The position numbers and the translations under genes were made by a program. A DNA stretch of 25,803 bases from Escherichia phage CBA6: the sequence record KM389300.1; one strand, written 5' to 3'. Shown piece by piece: positions 3,075 to 16,856 of the stretch; the first letter of the stretch is position 1; each line of letters begins with the position of its first letter. Below the pieces are notes generated by a model that was given only the letters and a program-made list of their open reading frames with translations, had not been told where the DNA came from and ran no database searches.

Positions 3075-3084
3075 TCCATCCTAA

Positions 3085-3112
3085 ATACCCCATACGGACC
3101 AGTGTGGGGTAT
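3085..3112 (+). promoter_or_regulatory. hairpin immediately upstream of the ART-like gene start
   Basis: 8-bp stem ATACCCCA (3085..3092) pairing with TGGGGTAT (3105..3112), 12-nt loop; the G-run (3106..3109) that could act as SD for ATG 3115 lies in the 3' arm; no T-tract. Confidence 0.35.
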
Positions 3113-3114
3113 CT

Positions 3115-3564
3115 ATGAAAACCTTTCTAGAATTTTATCGCGAATCAACGCTACCTGATTTTACGAATATCGTTTTGTATCATGGGTCTAATGTTGAATT
3201 CGATATATTTGATTTTGAAAAATTTGGCCAGACTGACTCTGGTACGATGGGTGCTGGGTTTTACCTGACGGGGGATCCAGAAAAGGCACAGATCTACGCA
3301 GAAAATGCCGTGCGCTATCGTCAATCTGGTGAACCTATTGTCATGGCATTTCGTGTCAAGGCCAAGAAGACTCTTGTAATAGATTCCAACAATGTTTCGG
3401 TGTGGGAAAATAAAATGCGAGAGTTGGGGATAAAGCCTGGTAAGATACATGATAATGTGAAAGAACTTATCAACAAAGGGTTCGATTCCATAGCCTCTAT
3501 AAGTGCCAATAACGTTGAGGAAATGGTGGTGTTTAAGCCAGGGTTGGCGACCAGAGAAGCCTAA
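3115..3564 (+). CDS. putative H-Y-E class ADP-ribosyltransferase (diphtheria toxin / PARP-like minimal catalytic domain), 149 aa
   Basis: YHGS (His23); GAGFYLTGD with Tyr50 and a second Tyr61 exactly 11 residues later (as in DT Tyr54/Tyr65 and PARP1 Tyr896/Tyr907); NNVEEMVVF (Glu135/Glu136) near the C-terminus; function is inferred from motifs only. Confidence 0.5.
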   Translation: MKTFLEFYRESTLPDFTNIVLYHGSNVEFDIFDFEKFGQTDSGTMGAGFYLTGDPEKAQIYAENAVRYRQSGEPIVMAFRVKAKKTLVIDSNNVSVWENKMRELGIKPGKIHDNVKELINKGFDSIASISANNVEEMVVFKPGLATREA

Positions 3565-6578: not shown

Positions 6579-9575
6579 ATGACTGTTTTCTATACGAACG
6601 TTGCCCGACAGGGTAACGACCTTCTGATTCGTATCGCAGACGACAACGGCAATCGCCGCATGTTGCGTAAGAAATTCGAACCCACCTTGTATTTACCCAC
6701 AGCTGATTATTCCAAAGTTGAAAAGATTGGCCTCCTCAATGAACCGTTGGTGTCTAAAAAGTTTGCATCAATGCGAGACGCTGACAACTATCTTGAGGAG
6801 TACAAGGAGGTCGAAGGGGCTGCGGTGTATGGACAAACGGATTATGCATATCAATTCATCGCCCATAGTTTTCCTGGGATGATCACACCTGATTATTCAA
6901 ATATCCACATCGCCAACGTGGATATCGAAGTGTTCTCGGCTGGTTGGCGTGACGGAGAAATGACTAAAGGTCCATTCCCACACGCAACGATTGAATCTCA
7001 CACGTTTAAAGGCAGCGAGGCGCGGGTTCGTCGTTTCCATAAGCAAGTACTGGCCAACCATGATTTCGTTCGGGAGCATTTCCCTGGTTCCTTTATTTCC
7101 AATAACGTGACTGACCAATTCCCTATAATTGACAGTAACGGTAAAATCACACAGAACATGAATGCGGCGTTCCCTATTACGCTGATACAGCTCCAAGATA
7201 TGAATACCAATAAATTCTATGTCTGGGGCATGCCGTGTTCCAAGGATCGCCATAAATTCAAATATGACCCCAATGATGAAGAAGTCGGCGGTCTTGAGGT
7301 TGAATATAAAGAATATACGACGGAACAAGATCTGCTTCGCGCCTTCTTAGATTACTGGTCGGAACGTCAATTTGACGGTTGGACGGGGTGGAACATTGAA
7401 ACGTTCGATAGCCCCTATTTGGTTGAACGAATTATGCAGGTTCTTGGTGAATCTGAAGCCCAGCGCCTCAGTCCTTGGGGTAAACTCAAGAAACGTTTCA
7501 TCAAAGACCGTAAAGGCGACGTGACTTCTTATCAATTCGTGGGTTGTCCTATGATGGACTACATGCAAGTTTACAAGAAACACACTTACACCACCCGCGA
7601 AAAATACTCACTGGACTGGATCGCTTATTGTGAACTCGGTGAGAAGAAGTTGGATTATAGTGAAAGCAAATCATTGTATGACCTTTATTTCAATGATTAT
7701 TGCAAGCATACGCGATATGGTATCAAAGACGTCAAGCTGGTGTGGCGCTTAGAACAAAAACTGCGTTTGATACAGCTGATGTTTGTATTGGCTTATCGCA
7801 CTAAATCCAACTATGAAGACGGTCTCGGCACTGTAGCACCGTGGCTGGCAATGTGCTATTATCGTCTTTATGAGAAGGGGATTGTCCCGAAAATCCAGCG
7901 CGTCTATGATGGGCCAACAGATTTTGAAGGCGCATATGTCATGGAGGTTGCCCCAGGGATATATTTCTGGGTCTTCTCTGAGGACTTAAACTCCCTGTAT
8001 CCCCACATCATACAGCAATACAACCTTGGTCCAGAGACTATCGTTTCTGATAAGCACACACGCCGTGATATTATTGAGGCCATGTGTGAGGAATTGACCA
8101 AAGCGATGAATGATATGACAACGCCGATGAATAAACGTCGTCATCTCAAAAATCTTCACGACAAGTTGCAGCGTGCTATTGATGAACGCATACAAGTTGT
8201 TGATGAATTGGTCGCGCTGGGCGAATTCCATTTTGAAACACTACGCCGATATAACGTTTCGTTTACCCCGAACGTTCAGTTCTTCAGTAATGAGAAGATG
8301 TCCTTCCTTTCCGAAATTATGCGAGGCATATACGCTGACCGTAAAGGAGAGAAAGCAACTGGCCTGAAGTATGAGCAATGGGCTGGTTGGTGTAAGGAAA
8401 TGTCTAAAGGTGATTTCCACCTTGAATCCGCCATGAAGTCTCGTTTCTACGATCCTGAATGGTATGAAGAACACAAGCACATCGATCTTGATCACCTGAC
8501 TGAAGTCATGCACAAGTGGGAAGATCTGGGGGTTGCTCAAGATACGTTACAACAAGGTCTGAAGATCTTGATGAACGCAGGTTATGGCGCAATCTCCAAC
8601 GTCTGGTTTAAAGAATACTTCAACATCAACATCGCTGAAGCAATCACCACTTCCGGCCAGCTGATCAACAAATGGAACAAACGCCACACCGATGATTATC
8701 TGAACAAACTTTGCGGCACTACTGGTCAGGATTTTGTTATCGCGGGTGATACTGACTCCAACTACATTTGCATTGAACGTCTGGTCAAGCAATTGTGGCC
8801 TGAAGAAAAGGATCATCACAAACTCGTTGATAACATTGACCAATGGATCAAAGAGAATTACCAGCCAAAAACCAGTGAATGGGCGCAGTTGTTGTGTAAT
8901 ACCATGAACGGGTTTGAGCAGCGCATGGTCTGGGAACGTGAGGTCATCGCATCGTCTGCTGTATGGCGAGCCAAGAAGATGTATTGCATGGCAGTATACG
9001 ATAGCGAAGGCATCAAGTATGAGAAGCCAAAGATCAAATTCAAAGGTCTGGAAGCGCGTAAATCTACAACGCCGGAATGGTGTCGTGAGCGTCTGGTTAA
9101 ATGCTATGAGAAAGTTCTGCTGGGGACGGAGGCTGAAGTTCAGGAATTGATCGCGGGTTATAAGAAGGAATATATGGAATTAACCGTGGATGATATTGCT
9201 CAAGCCTCTGGCGTTAGTGATATTGAGAAGTGGTTAGACGGCAACGGAAATTATATCAGTGGCACACACTTTGCTGCCAAGGCTTGTATTATGTACAACA
9301 AGCTGATAGACAAGCATGAAGACCTCGGTCTCCCGCCGATAGAATCTGGCGATAAGGTTAAAATCATTAACCTGAAACCTGGGAACCCTGTGGGGAACGA
9401 CCGCATAGCCTTCCCTGACTTCCTCCCTCCGGAGTTGGGGCTGGATAAGTGGGTAGATTACCACACCACGTTTGAAAAGACCTTCATAGAGCCGATTCAG
9501 TCTATTCTAGACGTGGTTGGTTGGTCTCACAAACGTCGAGTTAATCTGTTGTCCATGATGGGCAAGAAAGGTTGA
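6579..9575 (+). CDS. DNA polymerase, family B (T4 gp43-like), 999 aa
   Basis: N-terminus MTVFYTNVARQGN... resembles T4 gp43 MKEFYISIETVGN...; exo I motif VDIEVF; motif A DLNSLYPHII; motif C IAGDTDSNYI; start at 6579 chosen for SD GGAG (6568..6571) rather than the SD-less ORF start at 6477. Confidence 0.93.
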   Translation: MTVFYTNVARQGNDLLIRIADDNGNRRMLRKKFEPTLYLPTADYSKVEKIGLLNEPLVSKKFASMRDADNYLEEYKEVEGAAVYGQTDYAYQFIAHSFPGMITPDYSNIHIANVDIEVFSAGWRDGEMTKGPFPHATIESHTFKGSEARVRRFHKQVLANHDFVREHFPGSFISNNVTDQFPIIDSNGKITQNMNAAFPITLIQLQDMNTNKFYVWGMPCSKDRHKFKYDPNDEEVGGLEVEYKEYTTEQDLLRAFLDYWSERQFDGWTGWNIETFDSPYLVERIMQVLGESEAQRLSPWGKLKKRFIKDRKGDVTSYQFVGCPMMDYMQVYKKHTYTTREKYSLDWIAYCELGEKKLDYSESKSLYDLYFNDYCKHTRYGIKDVKLVWRLEQKLRLIQLMFVLAYRTKSNYEDGLGTVAPWLAMCYYRLYEKGIVPKIQRVYDGPTDFEGAYVMEVAPGIYFWVFSEDLNSLYPHIIQQYNLGPETIVSDKHTRRDIIEAMCEELTKAMNDMTTPMNKRRHLKNLHDKLQRAIDERIQVVDELVALGEFHFETLRRYNVSFTPNVQFFSNEKMSFLSEIMRGIYADRKGEKATGLKYEQWAGWCKEMSKGDFHLESAMKSRFYDPEWYEEHKHIDLDHLTEVMHKWEDLGVAQDTLQQGLKILMNAGYGAISNVWFKEYFNINIAEAITTSGQLINKWNKRHTDDYLNKLCGTTGQDFVIAGDTDSNYICIERLVKQLWPEEKDHHKLVDNIDQWIKENYQPKTSEWAQLLCNTMNGFEQRMVWEREVIASSAVWRAKKMYCMAVYDSEGIKYEKPKIKFKGLEARKSTTPEWCRERLVKCYEKVLLGTEAEVQELIAGYKKEYMELTVDDIAQASGVSDIEKWLDGNGNYISGTHFAAKACIMYNKLIDKHEDLGLPPIESGDKVKIINLKPGNPVGNDRIAFPDFLPPELGLDKWVDYHTTFEKTFIEPIQSILDVVGWSHKRRVNLLSMMGKKG

Positions 9576-9588
9576 TTCAATAAAACAA

Positions 9589-9608
9589 AGGGGGATATAA
9601 TTCCCCCT
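9589..9608 (+). terminator. hairpin after the DNA polymerase gene, possible terminator
   Basis: Stem AGGGGGA (9589..9595) / TCCCCCT (9602..9608), loop TATAAT; preceded by TTCAATAAAA (9576..9585); T-tract is weak. Confidence 0.45.
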
Positions 9609-9635
9609 GTTATCCCTTTGACAACAGGTATTGTT

Positions 9636-9980
9636 ATGAAACTCAATAAGATTCTTCTGGTGTGTGCTCTGGCTTTCTCTACCACTGCATGCTCTACCCT
9701 TCTGGACGTTGCGTCTACTGTTGACCTCGATGCGCCGACGTTCACCAATCAGCAAGCGGTGAATAAGATGGAAGACACCATCAAGGCACATGCAGCTTTG
9801 GACAACACCACTCCTGGTCCGTTGCAAACTGTTTGCAATTATGATGATTCCATCCAGGAAGATGAAACCTATCACTGCACCACTTACGTGAAGGAATCTT
9901 CTGTGGTTCTGTATGCCGATTGCACCGAAGAGCAATGCACCGCAACGGGTTATGACAATGTGGAGAAATCTGATGAATAA
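9636..9980 (+). CDS. putative lipoprotein (114 aa)
   Basis: ATG at 9636; N-terminus MKLNKILLVCALAFSTTAC resembles a signal peptide with a lipobox-like Cys; acidic, Cys-containing mature part; the ORF track start at 9618 is TTG. Confidence 0.5.
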   Translation: MKLNKILLVCALAFSTTACSTLLDVASTVDLDAPTFTNQQAVNKMEDTIKAHAALDNTTPGPLQTVCNYDDSIQEDETYHCTTYVKESSVVLYADCTEEQCTATGYDNVEKSDE

Positions 9981-10755
9981 TCACGTTGGTCTGTATGACG
10001 CATGTTCTAAAATTGGCGGGTTATATCGCGTTCTGGTGGATGTGGATTTGACTCTGGTTGATTCCCTATCGCCGTGGGTTGAATGGTTCAATATTTCTAA
10101 TTCTAAAGCCGCTGCGGAAAATATGGGATGTCACGACTACCCATCTGAATTTCAACCAATCACCAAAGAGTGTTATATGTCACACGCTGGTGATCTGGCG
10201 ATCCTCATGCGTGAACGCGCGCATCCGGCCTGGTTAACGCGCCGTGTATTCGTTGCTGGTCAGTGGATGGATTCGCCAACAGGACGTGATCCGATGGATT
10301 GGTGGCGTATGCCTGATCTGTATTCCAGAATGTCACCACTGCCAGGGGCTGTTGAATTCCTTACGAATTTAAAGGCCGCTCTCCTTCAGAAGTTTGAGCA
10401 AGTGGAAATGGTGGCTGTTACAAAATGCGAACCGGAACACGAACGCAGCAAGCGTCAGTTCATATACCATCACTTTGAATCGTTGATTAATGGGTTCGTG
10501 AGCACGGATGAAAAGCATCTGCTTGCTGGCGATGTCCTGATCGACGACAATCCGAAGTATGTTGAGCCGTGTGCCCTGAATAACATCTTCGTCATCTTCG
10601 TCCCTCAGGGCAATTATGAAAAACTGGATCTTTCGAATTGCGAGGATATGCTTTATATTAAGCATGTAGAAGGCCAAAACCACTTTGACTTCTTGAATCG
10701 TAACCTCGATGAAGTGGTGAATCGCCTGGTTTCTCATTATCAATATGTCCGATAG
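9973..10755 (+). CDS. HAD-superfamily phosphatase, 5'(3')-deoxyribonucleotidase-like (260 aa)
   Basis: Start ATG 9973 with SD GGAG (9962..9965), overlapping the upstream stop; HAD motif I VLVDVDLTLVD (DxDxT) and motif IV GDVLIDDNP. Confidence 0.65.
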   Translation: MNNHVGLYDACSKIGGLYRVLVDVDLTLVDSLSPWVEWFNISNSKAAAENMGCHDYPSEFQPITKECYMSHAGDLAILMRERAHPAWLTRRVFVAGQWMDSPTGRDPMDWWRMPDLYSRMSPLPGAVEFLTNLKAALLQKFEQVEMVAVTKCEPEHERSKRQFIYHHFESLINGFVSTDEKHLLAGDVLIDDNPKYVEPCALNNIFVIFVPQGNYEKLDLSNCEDMLYIKHVEGQNHFDFLNRNLDEVVNRLVSHYQYVR

Positions 10756-10764
10756 GAGCACATC

Positions 10765-11070
10765 GTGCAAGAACAAAATAAAGTTGTAGAAAGCCCTGAC
10801 AAGCGTTCCGGTGACAGTGATATGGATGGTATCATTATCCATGTAAACAACTTCATCCGTAATCAGAATCCACCAACTTCCGTTGGCGCAGCGTTGGAAT
10901 TAAAACGAGTTCTGATTGAAAACGGTATGGCACCTGATGACGACGAAATTTTCTATAACTTTGATGACCAGTATAAAGTGAAGTTTGTTGAGAATGGTCA
11001 TCCGCAAGTTGCCGTGTTTTGGGCACCTTGGTTGGGTGGAGTGAGTTGGCGCATTGAGGATGCTGCATAA
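10765..11070 (+). CDS. hypothetical protein (101 aa)
   Basis: GTG start at 10765 with SD TAGGAG (10753..10758); stop overlaps the kinase start (TAATG at 11068..11072). Confidence 0.5.
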   Translation: MQEQNKVVESPDKRSGDSDMDGIIIHVNNFIRNQNPPTSVGAALELKRVLIENGMAPDDDEIFYNFDDQYKVKFVENGHPQVAVFWAPWLGGVSWRIEDAA

Positions 11071-11984
11071 TGGCAAAGATCATCGTAATCAAAGGAACCA
11101 GCGGCACGGGTAAAGGCACTCGTGTCGTACAGTTCATCGAGTGGCTCCGCACTAAGCTGAAGCCGACTGAATTGTCGTACACTGTTGGGGATAAGACGCG
11201 CTCCTTCGGCCTGAAATTTGAAGAGCTGAAGTTAATCTTCGTCGGCCAATACACAGTGTCCAATAAATCCGGCCTGGCGTCTTGGACCTCTATGGACGCC
11301 ATTCATGCTGCCACAGGCTCTGGGGATATTGCTCGCGACCTCGTCAAGGGTTGGCTGGCTCAGGGATATACCCTGGTGTGTGAGGGCGAACCTCTGATGC
11401 TGTCGGACAAGTGGCGTCCTGAATGGATGTTCAATAACTATCCGATTGATTCTTTGGCGCTGCTGTACTTTGCATATCCAGACCGCTATCAGTACGATGC
11501 CCGCATCCGTGGACGCTCTGGTAAAGAAGCGGGGGATTCCGGCTGGTCGCGCAACGAATCTTACTCCAAGGAGTTCGAGAAGTCCAAGGCTGAAATGCTG
11601 GCGCTTGGCTGGAATGTTGCCGTGGATGATTACAGTGGGCAAGACGTTTTGTACCACCAAACGGCTACGAACACCCAAGAATTCAAGACTGGGAATGATA
11701 GCGAATTGGCTATGTTGCCGTTCGACGCCCCGTTGTGGGTGGTGGGTAATGCTATCTATCATCAGCTTGGCACAGTTTGCCGCGCTAACAATCTGATGTC
11801 GAAAGACTTCTACGGCTATTGCGAAACCAATCCGATGACGCGTGAAGTCGGCGGTCAGGATCCTTTGGCTCACAGAGTGCCTGAGAAGCCGCAGAAGGCA
11901 TCCAAAACTAAAAACAAGGCCGTCGCCAAGGAAGAACCAAAGACCTCATCCGTGTCCCTTCTGGGGCTAATGCGTAAGGTGTAG
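11070..11984 (+). CDS. P-loop kinase, NMP-kinase-like Walker A; candidate nucleic-acid (5-hydroxymethyl-pyrimidine DNA) kinase
   Basis: N-terminal Walker A GTSGTGKGT (the GxxGxGKGT form typical of adenylate/NMP kinases) at residues 9-17; 304 aa; C-terminal tail KTSSVSLLGLMRKV matches the polymerase tail. Confidence 0.7.
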   Translation: MAKIIVIKGTSGTGKGTRVVQFIEWLRTKLKPTELSYTVGDKTRSFGLKFEELKLIFVGQYTVSNKSGLASWTSMDAIHAATGSGDIARDLVKGWLAQGYTLVCEGEPLMLSDKWRPEWMFNNYPIDSLALLYFAYPDRYQYDARIRGRSGKEAGDSGWSRNESYSKEFEKSKAEMLALGWNVAVDDYSGQDVLYHQTATNTQEFKTGNDSELAMLPFDAPLWVVGNAIYHQLGTVCRANNLMSKDFYGYCETNPMTREVGGQDPLAHRVPEKPQKASKTKNKAVAKEEPKTSSVSLLGLMRKV

Positions 11985-11987
11985 ATA

Positions 11988-12191
11988 ATGAAAAAGATGT
12001 CTAAATATTTTGTGTTCGTCGGTCTGGTGATGTGCTTTTCAGCTATGCTTGTCGGTGTTATGAAATATTTGGGCATCGTTGAATTAGACTCAACCGAAAT
12101 ATTGAATGTTTACGCGTTATATTATTCGGGCGGTGTCGCTTTATTAACGCCGTTCGTTTACAACATAATTGAAAGTTTCAAAAGGAATTAA
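11988..12191 (+). CDS. small hydrophobic protein (67 aa), probably two TM helices
   Basis: ATG at 11988 with SD AAGGTG (11975..11980); hydrophobic segments FVFVGLVMCFSAMLVGV and GGVALLTPFVYNII. Confidence 0.45.
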   Translation: MKKMSKYFVFVGLVMCFSAMLVGVMKYLGIVELDSTEILNVYALYYSGGVALLTPFVYNIIESFKRN

Positions 12192-12192
12192 A

Positions 12193-12543
12193 ATGAAAAT
12201 TCTTATTCCACGCAATGCCATTGCTATTGCTGTTGACTATCGTGGCGATGCCAATATGATTAACGCTGTCCGATATTATCCGGAACAGAATAAAATCATT
12301 CCCCAATTCCAGCTGAACACCAATCCATCTTCTAAAGATTTCGGTGCATGGCGGCAAATTGGGTTGGCACGGACTCAGGTTAATGCCCAGCATTATATTT
12401 CTGAAAAAACGAAAACCGCCAAGCAAATCTGGGTAGTATCCAATGACCGTCGGTTCCTTCCAATTTGGTCTTTGGGCCAGCCCGTTTTAAACCCTGAAGA
12501 TATCCAACTCGAAGCCGAGGTGAAGGATGACGCATCTATCTAA
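12193..12543 (+). CDS. hypothetical protein (116 aa)
   Basis: ATG at 12193 with SD AGGA (12183..12186); the ORF track start at 12169 is TTG. Confidence 0.5.
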   Translation: MKILIPRNAIAIAVDYRGDANMINAVRYYPEQNKIIPQFQLNTNPSSKDFGAWRQIGLARTQVNAQHYISEKTKTAKQIWVVSNDRRFLPIWSLGQPVLNPEDIQLEAEVKDDASI

Positions 12544-13762
12544 AATGCCGACAGGTTATACGCCTCCGGCTGAATGGAAGTACCCAATTGATTTGTCAAT
12601 CGATTATCGTAAGCCAGAGAATCGGATGTATCTGCTCAAAGCATGGGTGGAGGCGCTGTCGTATACGGAAGAACACAACCAACAAGTTCGTCTGATGGAT
12701 TATGCGATTGAAGTCACTGAAGGCATTACGCAGCTTGAGAAGATCGAGCGCAAGATCTGGATGGCGTTCCTTTGGGGCTGTTGTTATAATGGGATTGGCC
12801 CATGGACGATTTATAGTGAGTTTCCTGTACCGCCTCAGTCACCACAAGAGTTCAAGCGATTCTGTGATTGGTATAACCTGAACTTCGAGCGTATGCGATT
12901 CGATACTGATTGCCGCTATCGCAAATCGAAGATGATCCCGTGTGTTCAGTCCTACATTGATTGGCTGGCTGGTCGTACTCAGATGGATGCTTTCCGTCCG
13001 TTGTTGGAGACTAAACTGCAAAGTGATCAATTCGTTAAGCTATGGGACACGGCTATGGGGTGGAAATACTTCGGTCGCCTGAGCGCCTGGAACTTCCTGG
13101 AAGCCCTGAACATGGTATTCGGCAACATGTATCAGATCGACGTCCCTGGGTTCATGTTGCGTGACCGTGATGGTAGTGAGTCCAACCGCAACGGCGCGGC
13201 ATTCTTGTCAAACCGTGACGACTGGGTGACCAAGCACGGAAAGAAAAAGATCAACGGCTGTCCTATCACCGATGAAGAATGCGACATCCTTGAGGCTGAT
13301 CTTGAACAGGCATTCAAAGATTGTGTCGCCGAGTTTGGTCACATCACGTTCATCAATCGTTTGAACTTTGAGACTTCCGGCGCTTGTTGGCTTAAGAAAT
13401 TCTTCCGTCTGAAAAACACTCGTTACATCGGGTGGGATGCCGAGCGTACTTGGGATGAGATCGACTACATGGAACGCATCTGGCCTGAGTACTCCTGTAA
13501 GGCATTATGGGAAGCCCGTTCCCTCTGGCTACCAGATACCCTGTTATGCGAAAAAGCTCCTGCAGGGCACGTTCCTGGCGTCCAGAAGTGGAAGATGCCT
13601 GTGTTCTTTGAGACGGGTGTTCCTCTACATATATGGCACCTGCAGCAGGGTACGCGTTGGGAACCATCTGAGGTTTACACTAATCTGAAAATGCCCGTCC
13701 GGAAGATAGATGACAATCCGAAGTCGACCAGTGTAAACCTCATGTCTTTGTTGAAACGATGA
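12527..13762 (+). CDS. hypothetical Trp-rich enzyme (411 aa); candidate DNA base-modifying transferase carrying the polymerase-like C-terminal tail
   Basis: ATG at 12527 with SD GAGGTG (alternative in-frame ATG at 12545); no motif I can name; C-terminal tail KSTSVNLMSLLKR matches the polymerase and kinase tails; two genes downstream of the kinase. Confidence 0.6.
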   Translation: MTHLSKMPTGYTPPAEWKYPIDLSIDYRKPENRMYLLKAWVEALSYTEEHNQQVRLMDYAIEVTEGITQLEKIERKIWMAFLWGCCYNGIGPWTIYSEFPVPPQSPQEFKRFCDWYNLNFERMRFDTDCRYRKSKMIPCVQSYIDWLAGRTQMDAFRPLLETKLQSDQFVKLWDTAMGWKYFGRLSAWNFLEALNMVFGNMYQIDVPGFMLRDRDGSESNRNGAAFLSNRDDWVTKHGKKKINGCPITDEECDILEADLEQAFKDCVAEFGHITFINRLNFETSGACWLKKFFRLKNTRYIGWDAERTWDEIDYMERIWPEYSCKALWEARSLWLPDTLLCEKAPAGHVPGVQKWKMPVFFETGVPLHIWHLQQGTRWEPSEVYTNLKMPVRKIDDNPKSTSVNLMSLLKR

Positions 13763-13770
13763 TATAAATA
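13763..13770 (+). promoter_or_regulatory. T4 late-type promoter box TATAAATA
   Basis: Exact TATAAATA at 13763..13770, about 30 nt upstream of the ATG at 13801; the only exact copy I found in the window. Confidence 0.5.
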
Positions 13771-13800
13771 TCCTTGCTTATAAAAGTGAGGATATAAATC

Positions 13801-13968
13801 ATGTTACAAGATCTGTTGGTGTATGCGCTCCCAGGCGTGGTTGTTGGTTTCATTGCTGGCGCTCTGGTTTTTCGTAAACACGCGCAAGACGGTGAAGCCA
13901 TCGTCCAGAAAGGTAAAGAGATTCTGGACCAAATTGAAGCCAAGCTGGAAGAGCTGAAGAAAAAGTAA
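13801..13968 (+). CDS. small single-pass membrane protein (55 aa; below the ORF-track size cutoff)
   Basis: ATG at 13801 with SD GTGAGGA (13786..13792); TM segment LLVYALPGVVVGFIAGALVF; charged C-terminal helix; followed by a strong terminator. Confidence 0.45.
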   Translation: MLQDLLVYALPGVVVGFIAGALVFRKHAQDGEAIVQKGKEILDQIEAKLEELKKK

Positions 13969-13996
13969 TCTGACTGCGATTGCGTTCTTCAATAAA

Positions 13997-14034
13997 GGGG
14001 AATGGGTTATTATTAGCCCGTTCCCCTTTCTTTT
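13997..14034 (+). terminator. intrinsic terminator
   Basis: 10-bp stem GGGGAATGGG (13997..14006) / CCCGTTCCCC (14017..14026) with one G-U pair, then TTTCTTTT; preceded by the conserved 18-mer CGTTCTTCAATAAAGGGG (13983..14000). Confidence 0.75.
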
Positions 14035-14049
14035 ACAAGGAAATACATC

Positions 14050-14304
14050 ATGGCAATGCAACGAATTGAAGATATGGACTCCCTCGATATTGAATCTATG
14101 GTATCGGTGATTCTGGAAGAAGATCATAAAAATCCAACAAAATACCAGATGACTGAGTTAGGCGATGCTGATGCTCTTTGGAATATACTGAACGGCAACA
14201 AAAATTCCGGCAAGAGTGCGTTTGGTCTACTACATGGCGAGGGGCAAGGCGGTTTCCGTCGCGGTGAACTGAATATTATCTGTGCCGGAGGGATTACGAG
14301 ATGA
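14050..14304 (+). CDS. hypothetical protein (84 aa)
   Basis: ATG at 14050 with SD AAGGAAA (14037..14043); stop overlaps the next start (ATGA). Confidence 0.5.
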   Translation: MAMQRIEDMDSLDIESMVSVILEEDHKNPTKYQMTELGDADALWNILNGNKNSGKSAFGLLHGEGQGGFRRGELNIICAGGITR

Positions 14305-14687
14305 TGCGCCCCGAATACAAACAATATTTGTACGATCTGTTCATGAAAGAAACAGACGGCGTGTTACATCCTAAGAAAGCGACTATTGTTAAATTGCATT
14401 CTGAAGGTGATTTGTCTATTGCATATATTCGGAAAGAACTCGATTTGATGGGTATTGAATATGAAGACCATATCACTGATACACGTGCTTTAAAAAGAGC
14501 GACAGCAATCGTTCTTCATACCGTTGCAACAATTATGCATCGCCACCATGTTTCTTTTGACGATGCAATGACTCCACAGTATCATGAAGAACGTTGGGAT
14601 CTGTTGTTGAAAAATGGAGCTGAATCAGATCATAAAAATCAACTTCTTGGTATGACGAAGGAACAACTCGTGGATGGTGTGTTATGA
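14301..14687 (+). CDS. hypothetical protein (128 aa)
   Basis: ATG at 14301 with SD GGAGGG (14287..14292); stop overlaps the next start. Confidence 0.55.
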   Translation: MMRPEYKQYLYDLFMKETDGVLHPKKATIVKLHSEGDLSIAYIRKELDLMGIEYEDHITDTRALKRATAIVLHTVATIMHRHHVSFDDAMTPQYHEERWDLLLKNGAESDHKNQLLGMTKEQLVDGVL

Positions 14688-15793
14688 TTTACCTTCTGTT
14701 TGTGGTCCCTATTATTTTAGCCATATTGTTCGTGGTTTACCATCGCAAAACCCATGAACCAAAAGAAACGCTAATTGCTACTGCGATAGTGGTTGTATTA
14801 TCCTGTCTTATCCAGGCGGGAGCATACGCTGCATTTTCCCTGGGTAGTTCGGGAGATGTTGAAATTTTGAATGGGTACGTTACTGACAAGCAACGAAATA
14901 AGGTGGGTTGTAGCCATTCTTATGAATGTATGTGCTATTACACAACTTCTTGCTCTGGTTCAGGAAATAACCGATCTTGTACACAAACGCGTCATTGCAG
15001 CACGTGCTATGAGCACTCTTATGACGTTGATTGGGACGTATTAACAACCGTCGGGGATCTGAGCATTGACCGTATTGATCGTCAGGGTACTACAGAGCCT
15101 CCGCGTTGGGCGCAAGTTAAAATCGGAGAACCTGCAGCTCGTGAACATGCATATATGAACTATGTTCTGGGGAACAAGGATTCTTTATTCTCCAAATCTG
15201 ACCAACAATTCGCTGAGAAGTTCAAAGACCATATCCCGTCATATCCAAGGGTGTATGATTATTATCGGGTGACTCGTGTTCTGAATATGTCAGGGATGGA
15301 TATTCCCGTTGATTATTGGAATGATTATCTGAACAACACTTTGAAAACATTGGGGGCATCACGTCAGGTCAATATCGTGTGGGTAGTGACTTCTGGCCAG
15401 CCTGTGGAATATTTTCAGGGGCTGCTATATGCATGGTCTGGTGGTAAAAAGAACGATGTCATTGTGGTTACTGACATATCGAAGGATATGAAAATCAATT
15501 GGGGTAAATCCACGTCATTTGCTGATGGGATGAATAACATGGAACTCCATTCCCGAAACGGTCTTTCATTGACTGGCAAACCCATGGGGATATCAGTATT
15601 CCAAGAAGTTGCAGTCAATATCAGCAAAGGATATAACCGCGTTGAAATGAAGGAAATGGAGTATCTGAAATGGCGTGACCTCAAGACATGGGAAGTGATT
15701 ATCGTCGTTTTATTAGGTTGTGTTCCGTTTACCGCAATTTTCATATTAGGCCATATGCAGTACAATGGTCGCACTTACAAACGTTTGTTTTAA
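14684..15793 (+). CDS. membrane protein with Cys-rich domain (369 aa)
   Basis: Two N-terminal TM helices and one C-terminal TM helix (WEVIIVVLLGCVPFTAIFILG); Cys-rich stretch CSHSYECMCYYTTSCSGSGNNRSCTQTRHCSTCYEHSYD between them; directly upstream of the LemA-like gene. Confidence 0.6.
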   Translation: MIYLLFVVPIILAILFVVYHRKTHEPKETLIATAIVVVLSCLIQAGAYAAFSLGSSGDVEILNGYVTDKQRNKVGCSHSYECMCYYTTSCSGSGNNRSCTQTRHCSTCYEHSYDVDWDVLTTVGDLSIDRIDRQGTTEPPRWAQVKIGEPAAREHAYMNYVLGNKDSLFSKSDQQFAEKFKDHIPSYPRVYDYYRVTRVLNMSGMDIPVDYWNDYLNNTLKTLGASRQVNIVWVVTSGQPVEYFQGLLYAWSGGKKNDVIVVTDISKDMKINWGKSTSFADGMNNMELHSRNGLSLTGKPMGISVFQEVAVNISKGYNRVEMKEMEYLKWRDLKTWEVIIVVLLGCVPFTAIFILGHMQYNGRTYKRLF

Positions 15794-15808
15794 CAAGAGG
15801 AAGTAAAG

Positions 15809-16378
15809 ATGTCGCAGCGTAAAGGTATTTCAATTGGTTGGATCATCGGTTTGGCGATTCTGGCTTTTGTTGTAATCGGTGTTGGTAGTTTCGTCAGTTA
15901 TTTCAATGATTTCAATCGTATTGAACAGCAAGTCAAAAAGTTCAATAAAGATTCTGAAAACCATCTGAGCAACTATACAAACAAAGTACAAGAGACGGCT
16001 CAGATACCTGGCCTGTACAAAGACGGTCTGAAAGAAGTGATCAAAGATACTTTCCAGGGTCGTTATGGTGCTGATGGTTCAAAGGCGGTTATGCAATGGA
16101 TCCAGGAACAGAACATCCAGTTTGATTCAAGCCTGTACAAAGAAATTCAGGTGGTCATCAGTTCAGGACGTGATGAATTCCGTATCAGCCAGACAAAGAA
16201 ATTGGACGCGTGTGCTATCTATGAAACCAAACTCGGCCAGTTCCCTGGATCTGTCATTGCTGGCATCTTTGGATACCCTCGCATCGATCTTGACAAGACC
16301 TGTCAGGTGGTGAGCGATACCCGTACCCAGGCCGCGTTTGACTCTGGGGTTCAGAACCCAATTAATTTCAAAGGTTAG
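15809..16378 (+). CDS. LemA-family membrane protein (189 aa)
   Basis: ATG at 15809 with SD AAGAGGAAG (15795..15803); N-terminal TM helix GWIIGLAILAFVVIGVGSFV; LemA-like C-terminal motif QFPGSVIAGIFGYP (compare FPTNxVAxxFGF). Confidence 0.6.
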   Translation: MSQRKGISIGWIIGLAILAFVVIGVGSFVSYFNDFNRIEQQVKKFNKDSENHLSNYTNKVQETAQIPGLYKDGLKEVIKDTFQGRYGADGSKAVMQWIQEQNIQFDSSLYKEIQVVISSGRDEFRISQTKKLDACAIYETKLGQFPGSVIAGIFGYPRIDLDKTCQVVSDTRTQAAFDSGVQNPINFKG

Positions 16379-16807: not shown

Positions 16808-16822
16808 TCGTTCTTCAATAAA

Positions 16823-16856
16823 GGGGGATAGGGTATTATTGCTCTATCCTCTTTTT
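16823..16856 (+). terminator. intrinsic terminator
   Basis: Stem around GGATAG (16826..16831) / CTATCC (16844..16849), extended by G-U pairs, then TTTTT (16852..16856); preceded by the same 18-mer CGTTCTTCAATAAAGGGG (16809..16826) as at 13983. Confidence 0.7.

Follow-up and report, generated by a model that had tools for sequence, protein, structure and literature searches.

The 25,803 nucleotides of Escherichia phage CBA6 analysed here (sequence record KM389300.1; hereafter the window) carry, between a DNA-modification gene and a strong intrinsic terminator, a short open reading frame (ORF) for a 55-aa single-pass membrane protein, which lies behind a putative late-promoter box, TATAAATA, and a predicted RNA hairpin that links this box to the ribosome-binding site (Table 1). 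The 2.5 kb surrounding positions 13763-13968 share 99.7-99.8% identity with the Salmonella phages Vi01 and vB_SenM-AKM_ssTn, and bases 13650-14060 (411) are 100% identical to Escherichia phage ECML-4; by sequence comparison, the window is that of a Kuttervirus (Ackermannviridae, the "ViI-like" phages). The gene upstream of the ORF, whose transferase label is also carried by the Guerrero and Sa157lw annotation, ends in a TGA stop codon (13760-13762) that abuts the box, leaving a gap of 38 nt between transferase and ORF. Our main comparison genome was that of Guerrero, a complete close relative of 157,565 bp.

Table 1. Features of the locus and its flanks, with positions in the window
Feature	Position	Strand	Basis and remarks
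Late-promoter box TATAAATA, family core TAAATA at 13765-13770	13763..13770	+	Sequence, motif placement, conservation
RNA hairpin, 12-bp stem (5' arm 13768-13779, loop 13780-13783, 3' arm 13784-13795)	13768..13795	+	Predicted fold
Shine-Dalgarno sequence GTGAGGA, 8 nt before ATG	13786..13792	+	Sequence; GAGG invariant in 9 relatives
"Second box" TATAAATC	13793..13800	+	TAT at 13793-13795 is the end of the hairpin 3' arm; the remainder is AT-rich spacer before ATG
ORF of the 55-aa bitopic membrane protein (Vi01_200 / phrog_3879)	13801..13968	+	ATG to TAA, with TAA at 13966-13968
Intrinsic terminator, 16-bp stem 13994-14009/14014-14029, then CTTTT	13994..14034	+	Fold; annotated in OR122688 and MN066127
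Family promoter-like TTCAAT-N14-TATTAT, one mismatch	13988..14013	+	Spacer is the terminator 5' arm, -10 is the loop
Sigma-70-like family promoter (TTGATTCAAT..N..TATAAT) after the DNA polymerase gene	9572..9601	+	Exact TTCAAT-N14-TATAAT; 10/12 in sigma-70 scan
aGPT-Pplase2 / amino-acid:DNA transferase (thymidine hypermodification), upstream gene	12527..13762	+	Pfam PF18724 ADDT, E = 3e-58

The gene and its late-type box

An earlier note, made from the letters of the window, had presented the ORF as missed. A 55-codon ATG-to-TAA frame does lie at 13801-13968, but it is already annotated in relatives, as Vi01_200 ("putative uncharacterised protein"), CBA120 orf249 and GUERRERO_205 ("putative membrane protein"). 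In pairwise comparisons with relatives at a synonymous divergence of 0.6 to about 2, its dN/dS ranges from 0.04 to 0.16, and on such a pattern it is a real, strongly constrained gene. It is found in 226 phage records (tblastn) and matches phrog_3879 with E = 3.5e-32 (residues 2-55 against profile positions 1-54 of 54), as do all 25 aligned relatives; the family has no assigned function. When 1.84 billion representative proteins were searched exhaustively with a profile, 28 clusters were recovered at E < 0.001, almost all made up of proteins of 41-62 residues in which the pattern VGF[IV]AGALV[FY]R[KN][HN]A precedes an amphipathic helix; the search widened the family and contributed no annotation, and a word-indexed protein search retrieved close relatives alone.

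An exact TATAAATA is present about 30 nt upstream of the ORF, as the earlier note stated. Its count in the window (1 observed against 0.70 expected, with at least one copy in 51 of 100 shuffles) corresponds to the chance level and is uninformative by itself. The box becomes credible above chance because of its placement enrichment, its conservation at saturated synonymous divergence and the independent boxes found elsewhere. Three of the four TATAAATA copies in Guerrero end 12-50 nt before a same-strand start codon (expected 0.1, P = 7e-5), namely those of the baseplate hub gene, a 56-aa membrane ORF and the 55-aa ORF. The same holds for the shorter TAAATA, 25 of whose 66 copies end in this zone (expected 1.7, P = 9e-23), the genes behind correctly placed copies being mostly structural; AT-rich control hexamers show no enrichment there. 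Sorted by the base in front of TAAATA, the copies that fall in this zone are 15 of 22 with C, 6 of 15 with A, 4 of 16 with T and 0 of 13 with G. Of the 22 CTAAATA copies in Guerrero, 15 are intergenic, and almost every one of these lies 21-43 nt ahead of a structural gene on the same strand; the genes that follow the intergenic copies include those for the scaffold, sheath, neck, VrlC, three tailspikes, the wedge and others.

Relatives retain the box or replace it by another form of the same motif. The intergenic sequence reads TGA-TATAAATATCCTCGCCTATAAAGTGAGGATAT..ATG in Kuttervirus, Agtrevirus and Limestonevirus, whereas divergent metagenomic relatives with the same transferase upstream have GCGCTAAATATCC, that is, a CTAAATA that overlaps a TAA stop codon instead of following TGA, and another metagenomic relative behind the same transferase gene has TATAAATACCCTC. 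Over a dS of 0.6 to about 2, the box is thus kept as TATAAATA or swapped for CTAAATA. Homologues in two other genomic settings are boxed as well. In Serratia phage phiMAM1 (Miltonvirus), the gene lies elsewhere in the genome, after a LemA-like gene and near rIIA (L011 1473-1665), and is preceded by CCTAAATAA, whose CTAAATA is about 28 nt from the start codon. A 43%-identical homologue directly follows a tRNA-Gly gene in Erwinia phage FBB1, a T4-like member of the Straboviridae, and there an exact TATAAATA stands 25 nt ahead of the ATG. Chance seems hard to invoke for a late-type box at an equal distance in three independent contexts. The metagenomic contexts of the more distant homologues (L013, L015 and L017) show no T4-type box, and their neighbours are mostly unannotated.

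A family box of the form [C>A,T]TAAATA, usually CTAAATA, is thereby supported, and the TATAAATA of this locus appears to be a variant of the Ackermannviridae late box. The earlier note had spoken of a T4 late-promoter box; placement and comparison bear out the late-promoter part of that reading and not the attribution to T4's own consensus, since several relatives have CTAAATA at this site. The late promoter of ViI-like phages has been described as not identified (PMC3184105), and a search with the T4 TATAAATA gave just three sites, 13763-13770 not among them (PMC3121705). Homologues of gp55, gp33 and the sliding clamp (gp45) are annotated in Guerrero, i.e. outside the window, and have also been reported for CBA120 and AG3. 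The scan called no sigma-70-like promoter at the box, where a -35 element is missing; an extended -10 sigma-70 promoter (TGnTATAAA) was rejected on the same lack of a -35 element and on the loss of the TG in relatives with GCGCTAAATA.

A predicted hairpin between the box and the ribosome-binding site

The Shine-Dalgarno sequence GTGAGGA was found at the place given in the earlier note, which described it and the box separately; both are present, and what had been overlooked is the hairpin that connects them. The 5' arm AUAUCCUUGCUU consists of the box end and the next nine bases and is complementary to AAGUGAGGAUAU (13784-13795), which holds the entire Shine-Dalgarno sequence. This hairpin folds at -13.2 kcal/mol (z = -4.9), a stability equalled by 0 of 200 shuffles, whereas RNA that begins at 13776 is not significantly structured (-5.3 kcal/mol, z = +0.9). 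Wherever the exact start may lie, a transcript made from the box cannot contain the box's own base pairs.

At 10 of 11 homologous loci, the box or the bases directly behind it open a hairpin that takes in the Shine-Dalgarno sequence; across the lineages its folding energy is -5 to -16 kcal/mol, and RNAs beginning 6 nt past the box are unstructured (0 to -3 kcal/mol). The counterpart in phiMAM1 has a stem of unrelated sequence (AACUC...GAGUU), that of FBB1 is an 8-bp stem over AGGAGG (CUCUUGUU-AAUU-AACAGGAG), and analogous hairpins occur in metagenomic relatives also. When nine Ackermannviridae sequences are compared, paired cells make up 93% of the total, a share that falls to 58% or less once the partner strand is shifted; the same sequences contain one compensatory change from U-A to C-G and three wobble changes. 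A scan against Rfam gave nothing above threshold, with terminator-like noise alone. Cleavage by RegB was considered and rejected, the Shine-Dalgarno sequence being GAGG and not GGAG.

The combination of box and hairpin recurs at other late-type genes. In 9 of the 25 genes of Guerrero with a [C/A/T]TAAATA box at a suitable distance, the box and the 5 nt after it pair with the initiation region (at least 6 nt of this region, at -9 kcal/mol or better), a condition reached by 3.8% of pseudo-boxes at matched distances before other genes (P = 2e-7). These nine are the genes for the endolysin, two tailspikes, the neck, the wedge, a structural protein and an acetyltransferase-like protein, a hypothetical gene and the 55-aa ORF. 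With a looser pairing criterion, the figures are 11 of 25 box genes against 21% (P = 0.009), and unspecific leader stability, measured as 45-nt free energy, does not differ significantly between genes with and without a box. The RuvC-like resolvase gene of Guerrero also lies behind a box-hairpin design, in parallel to T4 gene 49. The window itself holds a second box-hairpin at 3081-3112, CTAAATACCCCAUAC...GUGUGGGGUAU, before the ORF at 3115 (-19 kcal/mol, z = -3.7); it is also given as CTAAATACCCCATAC...GTGTGGGGTAT.

This pairing offers a reading of the motif CTAAATAcCcc, which has been quoted as a genus-specific regulatory motif of Ackermannviridae (PMC7283392). Most simply, its pyrimidine tail would be the complement of the GGGG/GAGG Shine-Dalgarno sequence in such a hairpin, an interpretation of the "cCcc" tail that was not found in the accessible papers.

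The near-copy TATAAATC, which the earlier note placed against the ATG as a second box, did not withstand comparison: relatives have TATTATC, TATAATC, TATGATC or TACCACC at this position, and the sequence is not kept in CBA120, EspM4VN, Coodle or metagenomic relatives. Its ATAT belongs to the end of the hairpin 3' arm and pairs with the ATAT of the first box. As a promoter it was also rejected, for transcription would begin inside the ORF. Judged by this lack of conservation, TATAAATC is not a functional element.

A candidate late-gated cassette

Transcription may reach the 55-aa ORF from far upstream. With an exact promoter at 9572, which is Porf237 in the supplement of the phiSboM-AG3 paper, and the + strand free of a convincing terminator from 9610 to 13760, read-through of the genes at 9618..13762 into the ORF is likely. 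On the other side of the ORF, the strong terminator announced in the earlier note is real, as judged by its stem, U-tract and fold; the probable promoter of the next operon lying within it had been overlooked. For the segment 13969-14049, the folding energy is -28.9 kcal/mol (z = -4.7), a stability equalled by none of 200 shuffles, and the last three stem pairs of the terminator are A-U, giving UUUCUUUU. The sigma-70 and terminator scanner overlooked the terminator and reported, within it, a small hairpin. The promoter-like site at 13988-14013 probably drives the next operon, which starts at 14050. The window contains 13 sites resembling TTCAAT-N14-TATAAT where 4.1 are expected, a number that none of 100 shuffles attains, and composites of terminator and promoter, with the -10 element in the loop of a G-rich hairpin, lie at 9572-9612, 13988-14029 and 16811-16855.

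These observations can be assembled into a single scheme, in which positions 13763-14034 would form a self-contained late-gene cassette set between two pre-late operons and encoding a late, envelope-directed product. We regard this as the better of the available accounts and as probable, though far from certain. Transcripts from the 9572 promoter would read through the DNA-modification genes into the ORF and carry the whole hairpin, which would close the ribosome-binding site and prevent translation. After the onset of replication, host RNA polymerase with the phage homologues of gp55, gp33 and gp45 would start near 13776, within the 5' arm, and the resulting late transcripts, without an intact hairpin, would be translated. 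The 55-aa protein is thus probably made only late in infection. It would enter the inner membrane with its N-terminus out and its C-terminus in, where its glycine-zipper helix and short cytoplasmic coiled coil would probably mediate self-association or the binding of membrane partners, and it would act late on the envelope as an accessory rather than a core factor. A gate of this kind has been described for the T4 genes e, soc, 49 and I-TevI, whose early read-through RNA forms an inhibitory helix that is lacking in the RNA from the late promoter (PMC3014915). What seems new at the present locus is the occurrence of this regulatory logic, known from T4, in another phage family; the ORF itself was already annotated and belongs to an uncharacterised family.

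The main alternative for the locus would make the ORF the last gene of the pre-late DNA-modification operon, with TATAAATA as an accident and the hairpin tuning translation or stabilising the mRNA. We consider it unlikely. A single box in the window is within chance, and the spacer beside the TGA is AT-rich, but despite saturation at synonymous sites the box survives, either unchanged or as CTAAATA, and the motif shows a strong positional enrichment. The gap of 38 nt to the transferase gene contains no terminator, as a last gene would have it; however, the phiMAM1 and FBB1 homologues are not behind this operon and yet are boxed at the same distance. Many genes without a box have structured leaders too, and the general free-energy comparison is not significant, whereas pairing between box and initiation region recurs at late genes.

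Several points nevertheless weigh against the late-gated cassette. The late start at about 13776 is what we presume from T4 geometry, taken as 6 nt past the last A of the box, and a review of T4 late transcription did not confirm the start-site spacing used for this position. No transcription-start, RNA-seq or peptide data for Ackermannviridae were found in the literature searched. The covariation in the nine Ackermannviridae sequences is not significant (one double change, with 97 of 500 shuffles as good), because the sequences are too similar, and both arms are constrained as promoter and as ribosome-binding site, so that pairing as a selected feature is not proven. In metaP0006, a common relative, CTAAGTA replaces TAAATA, a departure of one base. 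The pre-late class of the upstream operon is deduced just from its gene content and its consensus promoter. Finally, the gene is absent from Taipeivirus and is therefore not essential to the family.

In the Klebsiella phages of the genus Taipeivirus, no homologue is detectable by tblastn and none lies at the syntenic site; in Klebsiella phage Bestiario (Taipeivirus; L022 1268-2567), the transferase gene is directly followed by the terminator-promoter element, and box, hairpin and ORF are gone. This element is the sole part of 13650-14060 conserved in Klebsiella Taipeivirus. The cassette thus seems to behave as an accessory, movable unit, with a presence/absence polymorphism between genera. A tblastn search with the FBB1 homologue retrieved FBB1 itself alone, and no T4 or RB-phage counterpart was identified.

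Distant homologues are found in other surroundings. That of the metagenomic contig L015 follows the major capsid gene within a head module, and those of L013 (2-607) and L017 (1-3742) are directly 3' of genes for giant DarB-like or very large phage proteins. The next gene in L017 encodes a 121-aa protein with three membrane segments (phrog_30147, of unknown function). Beside the L015 homologue (L015 3947-6553; SRR6476468_152035), three called genes have in-frame stops under table 11, which could reflect stop-codon recoding or gene-calling errors.

On the 3' side of the 55-aa ORF in the window follow genes for small hypothetical proteins, a 369-aa membrane protein and a LemA-like protein. The Vi01 record calls the 369-aa protein a "host lysis protein", a name for which no support is apparent, and the LemA-like protein, whose gene comes after it, has the PHROGs label of a virion structural protein. 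The two genes (window region 14684-16378) stand as a pair near the 55-aa gene in Kuttervirus and phiMAM1 alike.

From the locus and its relatives follows a concrete and testable rule for where late promoters may lie in ViI-like phages: a [C/A/T]TAAATA box, in many cases joined to a hairpin over the ribosome-binding site. These phages are widely used in the biocontrol of Salmonella and E. coli O157, and their late promoters have never been mapped. The rule also suggests that the "better late than early" translational gate of T4 is a general design in this family.

The protein, its possible roles and known counterparts

AlphaFold2 predicts one continuous helix for residues 2-54 (pLDDT 84), in agreement with the single transmembrane helix and charged C-terminal helix that the earlier note had read from the translation. 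The hydrophobic stretch L5-F24 carries a glycine zipper, G12xxxG16xxxG20, in which G16 never varies within the family and G20 hardly does; the stretch is preceded by D4 and followed by R25-K26-H27 and an amphipathic, charged helix with a heptad pattern. By the positive-inside rule, D4 on one side and R25-K26-H27 on the other imply an N-out/C-in orientation, with the C-terminal helix in the cytoplasm.

Curated families (Pfam, NCBIfam and the PHROGs other than phrog_3879) gave no match above threshold, and a profile search of the PDB returned designed coiled coils alone. Below threshold, 16 of 25 members showed weak Pfam matches to ZapG-like proteins (best E = 4.5e-4), and others matched the N-terminal region of RNase Y, EzrA, LapA, YtxH and the DUF883 glycine zipper; all of these families consist of a single membrane segment, mostly an N-terminal anchor, with a cytoplasmic coiled coil. 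An hhalign comparison with 16 enterobacterial ZapG sequences gave 92-93% probability over about 50 columns collinear with ZapG residues 3-53, against 61% for the reversed query and at most 39.5% in 30 segment-wise column shuffles, and 11 of 18 residues of the membrane segment are identical to E. coli ZapG (YAL.G.VVG.I.GA..R). The protein of the window has no match to Pfam ZapG-like (PF06295) at E <= 1, and other family members reach 20.7 bits at best, for a cut-off of 33.5. Two further points count against a relationship: the NCBIfam ZapG model aligns residues 7-53 with its positions 4-49 at 16 bits, for a cut-off of 150, and membrane and coiled-coil segments inflate profile scores. The likeness to ZapG/YhcB is, by these scores, a resemblance and not family membership, and could reflect convergence of glycine-zipper anchors.

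A small late membrane protein, as read in the earlier note, is supported; the candidate functions offered there were lysis timing, a holin- or antiholin-like role and superinfection exclusion. The leading specific model, which we put forward tentatively and with a low probability of being right, is that the protein copies the membrane anchor of host ZapG/YhcB and interferes with ZapG partners; a role in lysis timing seems about equally likely, and other membrane roles take up the remaining likelihood. In YhcB, interaction with RodZ and YciS requires conserved residues of the membrane segment, and all interactions are lost once this segment is removed (PMC8163987); a further effect of YhcB is to restrain fatty-acid synthesis (PMC12977641). 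An anchor copy released late might thus titrate RodZ or LapA/YciS, or poison ZapG oligomers, or else the protein might act as a holin or antiholin with the 56-aa ORF, a set of conjectures that we hold to be doubtful. Were the mimicry real, the synthesis of fatty acids, lipopolysaccharide (LPS) and peptidoglycan, or division, would be uncoupled in favour of late infection or lysis. The unexpected likeness to a host envelope-regulating protein is in any case pointed out here. ZapG/YhcB (DUF1043) and the phage protein have in common an N-terminal anchor, a first cytoplasmic coiled-coil segment and the predicted topology, and ZapG is confined to the gamma-proteobacteria (PMC8163987), the group of the hosts of these phages. 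They differ in that the phage protein stops where the ZapG cytoplasmic domain begins and is devoid of the partner-binding region of ZapG (about residues 76-95, PMC8163987).

The lysis-timing role, in which the protein would be the missing holin, pinholin or antiholin of ViI-like phages and set lysis time or lysis inhibition, is a possibility of the same modest rank. No holin has been identified so far in the family (PMC3184105, PMC6509533, PMC6486244, PMC9686305), and CBA120 shows lysis inhibition. The small size, the single GxxxGxxxG membrane segment, the charged, basic C-terminus and a putatively late-gated leader of endolysin-like design would all suit such a role, although Pfam, PHROGs and NCBIfam yield no holin-family match, the endolysin and spanins are tens of kilobases away, and Taipeivirus, which shares the endolysin type, has no detectable homologue. 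Since the endolysin lacks an N-terminal membrane or signal-anchor-release (SAR) segment, a large-hole holin is needed, a role that would be unusual for a protein of 55 aa with one membrane segment and an N-out/C-in orientation. The protein is one of just two small late-boxed membrane ORFs in Guerrero, and the holin search in ViI-like phages is accordingly narrowed, as far as late small membrane candidates are concerned, to these two. The other, of 56 aa, lies at 96819-96989 on the minus strand (L005 46819-46989), belongs to phrog_4845 (MLQILLVLCVAFTMYFMARICF...) and has TATAAATA 27 nt upstream. Like holins and pinholins (T4 T, lambda S, S21 68), the protein is small, late (a prediction here) and membrane-embedded, with a charged C-terminus, and the pore-lining segment of pinholins is a glycine-zipper helix; it differs from them in its lone membrane segment of predicted N-out/C-in orientation and in having no sequence relationship, no linkage to lysis genes and a patchy distribution across the family.

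A morphogenetic helper that tethers assembly or packaging to the inner membrane, or a minor virion-associated protein, is improbable: its predicted late expression and the distant homologues in a head module (L015) or after DarB-like giants (L013, L017) would fit, but the Ackermannviridae locus lies among genes for DNA metabolism and membrane proteins and not among structural ones, no evidence of virion association was found, and the gene is dispensable in Taipeivirus. A superinfection-exclusion or other membrane defence factor, as might be expected of a small inner-membrane protein in an accessory cassette variable between genera, is very improbable, for it would be needed from the first minutes, whereas the leader appears to block early translation, a different gene of Guerrero is labelled as the superinfection-exclusion protein, and Pfam, PHROGs and NCBIfam (PADLOC was outside the search) show no similarity to T4 Imm, Sp or defence families.

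Whatever the role of its product, the leader of the 55-aa gene finds its closest parallels in two known regulatory elements. With the T4 gene e leader it shares a late box in the DNA of the 5' arm, a 3' arm that covers the Shine-Dalgarno sequence and a position behind genes of a presumed earlier class without a convincing terminator in between. It differs from that leader in phage family, in the usual form of the box (CTAAATA), in the gene that it precedes and in being known here by prediction alone; the design also appears to be widespread in the present family, with 9 of 25 box genes, including those of tailspikes and the endolysin. With the motif CTAAATAcCcc it has in common the core TAAATA, the distance to the start codon and a pyrimidine-rich continuation (ATATCCT here), whereas the base in front of the core is an A, with a T before it, so that the box matches the T4 consensus exactly.

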